DNA of 40,582 nt from a virus (Duplodnaviria > Heunggongvirae > Uroviricota > Caudoviricetes), in IMG/VR virus record IMGVR_UViG_2778261692_000003, positions 1-40,582 of that record; one strand, given 5' to 3'. How positions within the stretch are numbered: position 1 is the first letter of the stretch; each line of letters starts with the position of its first letter. The position numbers and the translations under genes are program-made. Below are positions 22,289 through 23,075 of the stretch, one piece after another. The notes under the pieces were generated by a model that was not told where the DNA came from, made no database searches, and saw nothing but the letters and a program-made list of their open reading frames with translations.

Positions 22289-22801
22289 GTCTTACCCCCA
22301 ATAAGGGGATTTGCTCTATTTAATTAGGAATAAGGTCGGTTACTGATAGAACAAATCCAGGCTACTGTGTTTAGTAATCAGATTTGTTCGTGACCGATAT
22401 GCACGGGCAAAACGGCATGAGGTTGTTAGCGCAGCCTCTTGCCACCCGCTTTCACGAAGGTCATGTGTAGAAGGCCGCAGCGTAACTATCACTGATGAAT
22501 TCAGGATAGCCAGTAGCTACGGCTCAGTTTGGGTTGTGCTGTTGCTGGGCGGCGATGACGCCTGTACGCATTTGGTGATCCGGTTCTGCTTCCGGTATTC
22601 GCTTAATTCAGCACAACGGAAAGAGCACTGTATGTTGCCGGGCCAGATGTCGGCTGCACAGGGAGTCATTGCCGACCCACGCCCTAAACACACTCGTAAA
22701 TGCGCTTAGGGTTGACTCCCCTGGTATCCAGTTATTCCCCGGCTGGGGATACTCCGCGCGACGCTAATGCGTTTCGTCCCTCATGGACTCGTCAGGCGCG
22801 C

Positions 22802-23068
22802 AATGCTCTTACCTGTTGTGTACCCATTATTAATCACACCGGGCCAGTGCGCCGAATTTGTTTACAAGGAGTCGGAAGACCTTGCTGACTTACAGGCTAT
22901 TACGCCGCCATCAGAACAACATCATCGTTTGCATTTATCTTTGTGGTCAGTTTCTAAAAACCCGCAAAGTCGCCAACTCTGACGAAAACTATCGTTGTGC
23001 TGCCACAACGATAAGAGCACTCGGTGCATTTAAGCCAAGCCCCATAAGGGAGAATGCTCTTACCTGTT
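22802..23068. repeat. Two 16-bp perfect direct repeats (AATGCTCTTACCTGTT at 22802-22817 and 23053-23068) bracketing about 235 bp within the Q-S intergenic region
   Basis: Read directly; each repeat is one arm of an imperfect inverted repeat with downstream AGTGCTCTT-containing sequences. Confidence 0.6.
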
Positions 23069-23075
23069 ACACAGA

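Follow-up and report, generated by a model that had tools for sequence, protein, structure and literature searches.

A candidate late-transcribed RNA cassette with tmRNA-like and hammerhead-like elements in the Q-S interval of a lambda-like prophage

The window analysed here, the whole stretch of 40,582 nucleotides (nt) formed by positions 1 to 40,582 of IMG/VR virus record IMGVR_UViG_2778261692_000003, is a lambda-like prophage lying on the reverse strand, with late transcription on the - strand. Gene Q (23349-23972, -) is separated from the lysis genes S (21965-22288, -, start at 22288) and R (21505-21981, -) by an interval whose gene coordinates, 22289-23348, give 1060 bp, in agreement with the ~1.06 kb of the initial annotation. 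In this interval we detected a cassette of structured RNA elements, consisting of a first stem module, an RNA that we call Y and that resembles the template half of transfer-messenger RNA (tmRNA), a second stem module whose core, X, opens with a putative hammerhead ribozyme, and a closed domain shared with lambda. All signals of the cassette are on the late-transcribed (-) strand, to which the coordinates below refer.

The late promoter PR' (23278-23306; TTGACT-17-TAAATT; promoter scan and lambda alignment) and the terminator tR' (hairpin and U run, 23077-23137; inverted repeat and lambda alignment) are lambda-like, as the initial annotation had stated, and together with qut and the S leader they lie within flanks that are ~97% identical to lambda on either side of an insertion. 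The sole difference is that the 34 nt found in lambda between AACAGGTAAGAGCATT and CAGTGCTCTTTCCGTTGTG have become ~419 nt in the window, confirming by alignment the small insertion suspected earlier in this slot; the cassette begins 6 nt past tR'. The 16-bp sequence AATGCTCTTACCTGTT occurs twice in direct orientation, 251 bp apart, its exact copies being found by a repeat finder at 22802-22817 and 23053-23068 only, and by simple arithmetic the chance expectation for an exact 16-mer repeat within 1.2 kb is ~2e-4. Lambda has one repeat copy and one complementary arm, and the repeat organisation is thus not a universal part of the late leader. When the 441-nt insert, which contains Y, was used as a query, matches were found in 461 of 5426 complete E. 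coli genomes, two of which carry the full arrangement of the window.

The annotation pipeline PGAP leaves the Q-S gap without annotation, and the longest open reading frames (ORFs) on the transcribed strand, of 58, 50 and 35 amino acids, have no PHROG family, which bears out the earlier statement that no sizeable ORF is present there. A protein-coding reading of the region was considered and rejected: none of the five ORFs across it has a PHROG family, and its conservation is explained by RNA covariation. Rfam 15, applied at gathering thresholds to the window and 18 related loci, returned tRNAs only.

The region had been proposed to hold a duplicated structured-RNA module, and this proved correct in that the repeat is the 5' arm (T) of a conserved RNA stem that occurs twice. 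In module 1 (23004-23071) the T arm (23071-23053), which includes the repeat copy at 23053-23068, and the T' arm (23021-23004) enclose a 31-nt core, Z (23052-23022), that is also found between T and T' in Klebsiella phage MK54. In module 2 (22612-22820) the T arm (22820-22802), containing the second repeat copy, and the T' arm (22629-22612) enclose the 172-nt core X (22801-22630). Each copy pairs, as described before, with an arm containing AGTGCTCTT (22618-22630 with 22801-22813, and 23012-23022 with 23052-23062). Among T/T' stems gathered from ~160 related loci by outer-arm anchors with at most 1 mismatch, the 18 pairs of the helix were 94.3% paired, with double-sided changes at 9 pairs (42 cells), a result equalled by none of 500 shuffles; examples of compensatory change are AAGAGCAUU/AGUGCUCUU, AAGCUGCUU/AGGCAGCUU and AUAAUUGCAUU/AGUGCAAUUAU. 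Many of the pairs are G-U, and because G-U becomes an A-C mismatch on the opposite strand, the structure is assigned to the late transcript. Pairing also runs on into the variable sequence that follows (CACAAC/GUUGUG, AACUAUC/GAUAGUU, CGAAAUCUGG/CCAGUUUUCG), and the leader is therefore paired with the 5' end of the next module.

RNase III is known to cut double-stranded processing stems such as the leader-trailer helix of rRNA and the R sites of T7. The T/T' helix, with its 18 pairs and flank extensions, provides the ~20 bp of continuous double-stranded RNA typical of such stems, and it resembles them in being a helix of 18-24 bp with one bulge and one mismatch in which a leader is paired to a downstream 5' end. 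It differs from them in that its loop holds exchangeable structured cores, and we know of no sequence similarity between the two. The T/T' stems are probably processing and scaffold helices, for which RNase III is the obvious candidate enzyme.

Among 30 parsed loci, 21 distinct cores of 31-172 nt lie within T/T'. Since conserved arms enclose exchangeable cores, the duplication is best ascribed to recombination at T. Such observations may also be taken to mean that the repeats are recombination scars, or the ends of a miniature inverted-repeat transposable element (MITE), around an insert that is inert or encodes a small protein on the + strand: recombination at T is the simplest account of the duplication, the T arms flank very different cores, hypothetical ORFs are annotated across Y in some phage records, and X is flanked by an 8-bp direct repeat in Pectobacterium phages. 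We nevertheless consider this explanation very improbable, as the compensatory changes and the strand-specific G-U pairs point to selection on RNA structure, the + strand ORFs have no PHROG family, and the conservation of Y is 70-95% between families of phages that are otherwise unrelated. The MITE version, already disfavoured by the covariation, was rejected: the arms are indeed inverted, but no target-site duplications were found at the T arm ends, and the T/T' pairing extends into the following sequence, unlike a target-site duplication. As to the cores themselves, a T-arm-like hairpin, GGTTCGAATCC, is present in several of those at loci L018, L057, L081 and L011, and some cores would therefore be tRNA-like in their own right.

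Between the two stem modules lies Y (22822-22991, ~170 nt), which was delimited from phage records, an alignment with pair counts, and sub-threshold Rfam matches to tmRNA. A BLAST search with Y alone retrieved 762 phage records at 70-95% identity from otherwise unrelated families, including T1-like, N4-like (G7C group), Vi01-like, Felixounavirus, phiEa21-4-like, Carvaje and lambdoid phages, and further GJ1-like phages and a Vibrio phage. Y also occurs in ~600 plasmid records, nearly all of them non-mobilizable; the one inspected is an IncY P1-like phage-plasmid. On the E. coli IncY plasmid NZ_CP010173 (L170, 1199-1460), Y (tag ANDDLMMVAA) and a T-core-T' stem stand between a dam methyltransferase gene and tRNA-Asn/tRNA-Thr. 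The usual setting of Y is a tRNA cluster or, in T1-like phages, a position behind its own consensus-like promoter, TTGACA-17-TAGATT. This promoter and the compensatory changes in the structure speak against the possibility, named in the initial annotation, that the region is simply part of the late leader, without independent transcripts or conserved structure. In most records Y is unannotated, and in some a hypothetical-protein ORF is drawn across it (ZBSTP8, 24-32N, Bas77 and Bas80 are examples), probably a mis-annotation of an RNA gene.

The template region of Y (22897-22938) is covered by sub-threshold tmRNA matches, obtained with relaxed Rfam settings, over AUAAAU GCA AAC GAU GAU GUU GUU CUG AUG GCG GCG UAA UAG, where the upstream AUAAAU is followed by a resume codon GCA (22932-22930), a tag reading frame (22932-22903) and the stops UAA (22902-22900) and UAG (22899-22897). 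The tag of the window reads ANDDVVLMAA, and those of other Y copies include ANEEMYLAVA, ANDEQFLAVA, ANDDLMLMAA, ANDNVFLAVA and ANDNTFLAVA. In 118 of 120 unique copies the tag is exactly 10 codons long. At codon 10, Ala is encoded by GCN, and each of the four third bases occurs there among the copies; Leu at codon 7 is spelled CTG or TTG, position 6 is invariably taken by one of the hydrophobic or aromatic residues F, Y, V, M and I, and the stop that follows interchanges between TAA, TGA and TAG. The copies vary in the manner of a translated sequence, a clear coding signature. The tag has no in-frame start codon, and an in-frame UAG can be read eight codons upstream of the resume codon. In tmRNA, U85 and A86 fix the reading frame (PMC2481249); the matching positions of Y, U(-5) and A(-4) in AUAAAU-GCA, are invariant in the alignment.

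A hand-proposed model of the Y structure was tested on an alignment of 30 sequences, where 93.4% of cells were paired and 17 pairs showed double-sided changes, which none of 500 shuffles equalled. The stop codon is located in the loop of a hairpin resembling helix 5 of tmRNA, the helix of which is 100% paired with covariation at 4 of 4 pairs. Past the tag there are two pseudoknots (22822-22884), whose four helices are 86-100% paired with double-sided changes at 11 of 18 pairs. In the first, the loop CCGA of the hairpin CAAGG/CCUUG pairs with a downstream UCGG, and loop and partner change together (CCGA/CCAG/CCAA with UCGG/CUGG/UUGG); the second is of the H type, with CGCAC/GUGUG and GCCC/GGGU (GGGC in the alignment) crossed by the loop AUUAAUAA. 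Upstream of the template the element is a hairpin, 83.5% paired, and a pseudoknot at that place is unproven.

Y thus shares with tmRNA a GCA resume codon placed after U(-5) A(-4), a stop codon in a helix-5-like loop and pseudoknots beyond the tag, and its tag of 10 residues, which starts with AND or ANE and ends with A, is like the ANDENYALAA of E. coli tmRNA. It differs in being shorter (~170-200 nt against ~360), in having a hairpin in place of pseudoknot 1, in carrying a 5' end that is antisense to the host tmRNA template, and in having no acceptor stem, T arm, G3-U70 or CCA. Inspection of Y by eye revealed no tRNA-like domain, for which an acceptor stem carrying G3-U70, a T arm and a 3' CCA would be expected. 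ARAGORN called neither a tRNA nor a tmRNA in the window, and among more than 100 related loci it did not call a single tmRNA. The Rfam scores of Y are below the gathering thresholds (26.3 against 47 for tmRNA_permuted, 17.4 against 84 for beta_tmRNA), as is the best tmRNA score among its relatives, 33.1. In Felixounavirus, phiEa21-4, Mangalitsa and the Vibrio phage, only a hairpin or a terminator follows Y.

The most conserved part of Y is its near-invariant 5' end, (R)GUUUUCG, which is outside every covariation-supported helix. Here the 11-mer UAGUUUUCGUC (22981-22991) is the exact complement of nt 96-106 of E. coli K-12 tmRNA, in tag codons 3-6. The pairing continues in the window (22974-22961) with GCGAC on GUCGC (tmRNA nt 87-91), over the resume codon, and with UUUGCGG on CCGCAAA (nt 74-80), the 3' strand of pseudoknot 1; overall, the 5' end is complementary to tmRNA nt 67-108. 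For most of 55 family members the best duplex of the 5' end on tmRNA falls in the tag region, nt 87-109. The first 33 nt give -27 to -33 kcal/mol with tmRNA, which is 2.7-5.3 standard deviations beyond shuffles in 6 of 7 lineages, and in 29 of 30 members the first 30 nt give -22 to -34 kcal/mol on tmRNA compared with -12 to -19 on Y's own downstream sequence. The register of the extension differs by lineage: an uninterrupted run of 14 pairs is formed in phiEa21-4, AUAGUCGC / AAAAUAGUCGC is the pairing in IME11 and the Vibrio phage, and the divergent seed of locus L128 is that of E. coli phage Mangalitsa, in which an extra UGA is just a bulge. Many Enterobacterales, Vibrio, Aeromonas and other Gammaproteobacteria have the targeted 22-mer of tmRNA in identical form, which fits an invariant seed. 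A conserved single-stranded seed facing a conserved target is what is expected of a trans-acting, base-pairing small RNA (sRNA). Pairing of the 5' end with Y itself was considered and rejected, since it is much weaker on Y's own template than on tmRNA, and the tags vary while the 5' end is constant. A Y-like gene with a 13-codon tag, ANDESNGEMRLVA, was seen in Vibrio phage vB_VhaS_MAG7 (L291, ~430-620), where it ends at an intrinsic terminator; it does not have the AUUAAUAA pseudoknot, and it carries GUAGUUUUCAUUG as seed and, in GCGAUUGUUUU, a stretch complementary to tmRNA nt 81-91.

The complementarity may be read as that of a pure antisense inhibitor or decoy that uses its 5' end to block the tmRNA template or make it unstable and its tmRNA-like body to titrate SmpB, S1 or RNase R, with the tag left untranslated. 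The complementarity spans the resume codon and the A86 region, and induced pairing in this region inactivates tmRNA (PMC2481249). Moreover, a tmRNA fragment made up of the tRNA domain only inhibits tmRNA, according to the work as cited in PMC4131195, and the seed lies at the very 5' terminus, a position that is common among base-pairing sRNAs. Mimicry alone, however, needs no coding signature, and Y has one, in its fixed 10 codons, the third bases of its Ala codons, its CTG/TTG exchange and its interchanging stops; we therefore judge pure inhibition to be unlikely.

The core X of module 2 begins with a putative type I hammerhead (22754-22801; CUGACGAG ... CGAAAC ... GUC), identified with Rfam RF00163 and RNAalifold. 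The first 48 nt of X match RF00163 with 24.7 bits (E 0.0012, relaxed threshold), and cleavage is predicted after C22760, between 22760 and 22759. The catalytic core (C3-U4-G5-A6-N7-G8-A9, G12-A13-A14, A15.1-U16.1, H17) is complete in the window, SDFMU_EhYP and Pappous, with N7 (C, A or U) as its only variable position, and from three distinct sequences RNAalifold recovered all three stems (I, II and III), with a single compensatory change in II and another in III. The remaining 124 nt of X (22630-22753) form a 3' domain of nested helices that is conserved in Enterobacter and Pectobacterium phages and accounts for six of the eight compensatory pairs in X. A T7-like Enterobacter phage has X at 97% identity, in a lone T-X-T' unit that follows the terminator of the capsid gene, and the identity is 80% in Pectobacterium/Dickeya phages, beside tRNA-Met. 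In two of the latter, Pectobacterium phage Pappous and Dickeya phage Setonix (L168 and L169, 596-772), X has no T stems, abuts tRNA-Met and is flanked by an 8-bp direct repeat, ACAAATTA; this arrangement hints that X may be able to move by itself.

Hammerheads are known in use as insulators, RiboJ being a synthetic ribozyme insulator. With RF00163 and RiboJ, X shares the core CUGANGA / GAAA / UH and three stems of which II and III are capped; as with RiboJ-type insulators, it is located in a 5' leader, where cleavage would free the upstream RNA and leave a message with a 5'-OH. X differs from both in that its hammerhead lies within the loop of a conserved 18-bp stem and is followed by a conserved 124-nt domain.

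Downstream of module 2, partly overlapping its T' arm, is the closed domain shared with lambda (22533-22617), in which GUUGUGCUG (22617-22609) pairs with CAGCACAAC (22541-22533), as found from an inverted repeat and the lambda alignment; in other phages the closing stem is GUUGUGGUG/CACCACAAC, a compensatory change. The late leader of lambda itself (J02459, ~44790-44960; L001, ~980-1150) has one T-core-T' hairpin, the core of which measures 34 nt, and a domain with GUUGUGCUG/CAGCACAAC as closing stem; part of this leader is therefore a member of the same modular RNA system, unannotated there. In many phages (L004, L006, L045, L089 and others) a domain of 100-170 nt closed by GUUGUGGUG/CACCACAAC comes right after T'. 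It contains two hairpins with complementary loops (GCUGAU/AUCAGC; ACUGAU/AUCAGU in L006), which in L045 and L089 are replaced by a D-arm-like hairpin and a canonical T arm, giving a tRNA-like domain with a 9-bp closing stem, without G3-U70 and without an encoded CCA. Two further tRNA-like genes not called by ARAGORN were seen, one in IME11 (L004, ~1949-2005) and one in Vi01 (L093, ~1230-1385); the latter is ~135 nt long, has a T arm and encodes its CCA.

The perfect palindrome of the initial annotation, which proved to be perfect for 10 nt around a 4-nt loop (TATCGTTGTG / CACAACGATA, 22990-23013), corresponds to a mini hairpin, AUCGUUGUG-GCAG-CACAACGAU (22991-23012). Comparison of this inverted repeat with other loci shows it to be the minimal form of the stem that closes a tRNA-like domain of 70-170 nt in other phages. 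Followed by UUUU (22989-23014), it was scored as terminator-like in a promoter and terminator scan, and it might be an attenuator of read-through into Y or the 3' end of module 1.

These domains raise another possibility, in which Y is the coding piece of a two-piece tmRNA made by the phage alone, its partner being the stem-closed domain after T' or another tRNA-like gene of the phage, with T/T' holding the pieces together, the hammerhead cutting between them and the host tmRNA playing no part. Two-piece tmRNAs do occur in phages (PMC9004378). In T1-like, N4-like and many lambdoid loci, the GUUGUGGUG/CACCACAAC-closed domain follows Y-T-core-T' and has either 'kissing' loops or a D-arm-like hairpin with a canonical T arm. 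A cut inside the core would yield two RNAs still held together over 18 bp, and the permuted-tmRNA model is the best Rfam tmRNA match. The closed domain, however, is without G3-U70 and encoded CCA, and T' adjoins its closing stem on the 5' side, a topology that differs from that of tmRNA and in which RNase P would sever the link. Y occurs without such a domain in Felixounavirus, phiEa21-4, Mangalitsa and Vibrio phage MAG7, the domain is reduced to 67 nt in the window and lambda and to a 4-nt loop in module 1, and ARAGORN calls no tmRNA at any locus. As a phage-only tmRNA would also leave unexplained the near-invariant 5' end of Y and its match to host tmRNA, we find this possibility improbable.

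The reading that we prefer, and to which we give somewhat less than an even chance, is that of a late-expressed RNA cassette that acts on the trans-translation of the host and is freed by a ribozyme. It starts from what was directly observed, namely the RNA structures, a tag with a coding signature, a 5' end complementary to tmRNA, the ribozyme core, the distribution, and the promoter in T1-like phages; pairing in vivo and the use of Y as a template we infer. According to this model, the cassette would be transcribed only upon Q antitermination at tR', and the leader would then fold into its stems. Y, with its resume codon, degron-like tag, stop in a loop and two pseudoknots, would be a phage-borne 'template-only' relative of tmRNA, expected to start at (GA)UAGUUUUCG. 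Its single-stranded 5' end would dock on host tmRNA, from the 3' strand of pseudoknot 1 over the resume codon to tag codon 6, thereby masking the host template and setting that of Y beside the host tRNA-like domain. Ribosomes rescued late in infection would in turn be handled with the tag that the phage encodes or, at the least, tagging by the host would be prevented. The hammerhead in X would cut 3' of Y, separating it from the S-R-Rz lysis message and leaving that message with a 5'-OH, and T/T' would join each leader, by pairing, to the 5' end of the module after it; self-cleavage and the part of RNase III are, like the pairing, inferred. At the DNA level the T/T' arms would serve as joints for core exchange, which would account for the duplicated 16-bp repeat. 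One may go further and speculate that Y is a replacement template acting in trans, held to tmRNA by ~25-30 bp in interrupted segments, so that a hybrid host-virus tmRNA reprogrammes the rescue tag; this stronger version we regard as doubtful.

Several points weigh against these readings. The exact 11-mer is by itself only modestly improbable, with ~0.014 expected for Y against the whole tmRNA, the 5' end of Vi01 does no better than its shuffles, and the duplex energies were computed without intramolecular structure. All known hosts have one and the same tmRNA target, which gives the seed no host variation to track, and the complementarity could be a relic of an inverted tmRNA fragment. To our knowledge, resumption of translation on a template bound to tmRNA by base pairing alone is without precedent. 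The phage tags still resemble ClpXP degrons (they have a terminal A, and ends of the ..LVA type are potent), and the benefit of a tag swap is therefore unclear. In many phages a tRNA-like domain comes right after Y, which suggests a different partner. Finally, the hammerhead scores below the Rfam gathering value of 34, with 24.7 bits in the window and 28.7 in L005.

Several RNAs are known from the slot between PR' and S of lambdoid phages, among them lambda 6S RNA, StxS, the anti-sRNAs AsxR and AgvB, and the tRNA genes of phages encoding Shiga toxin (Stx). The cassette has in common with them its genomic slot, its dependence on late transcription and products that act, or in its case would act, on the RNA biology of the host; none of them is similar to Y, to X or to the T stems. 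Neither Rfam 15 nor the literature searched, which covered few of the subscription journals, yielded a description of these three elements, and an earlier one may exist. Phage tmRNAs and hammerheads are already known as kinds; compared with Rfam 15 and the searched literature, the new elements are a template and pseudoknot RNA that has no tRNA-like half and is antisense to host tmRNA, and a system of T-stem cassettes that is also present in lambda's own leader.

An exhaustive survey published in 2014 by the curators of the tmRNA database found ssrA in mycobacteriophages and none in enteric phages or plasmids, and named Bacillus phage G and mycobacteriophage DS6A from outside its dataset (PMC4131195). 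DS6A has an ssrA fragment consisting of the tRNA-like domain (TLD) only (PMC4131195), and like Y it is one half of a tmRNA in a phage. DS6A keeps the tRNA-like half and Y the template and pseudoknot half, which makes them mirror images of each other; the half-tmRNA of DS6A is presumably meant to act on host trans-translation.

If the preferred reading is true, a large proportion of enterobacterial phages would carry an unrecognised RNA directed against the main ribosome-rescue system of their host. The carriers would include model phages and phages used in therapy, of the T1-like, N4-like, Felix O1-like, Vi01-like and P1-like groups, as well as lambdoid prophages of enterohaemorrhagic E. coli (EHEC) O26. 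The cassette would account for hundreds of gaps between phage genes that carry no annotation or a wrong one, and it would place a natural hammerhead 'insulator' in a late leader and part of the lambda leader within the same modular system. A 'template-only' form would join the known architectures of tmRNA, and the long-standing finding that certain phages need tmRNA would gain a molecular handle. The cassette would also provide a directly testable case of one RNA assuming the coding function of another.

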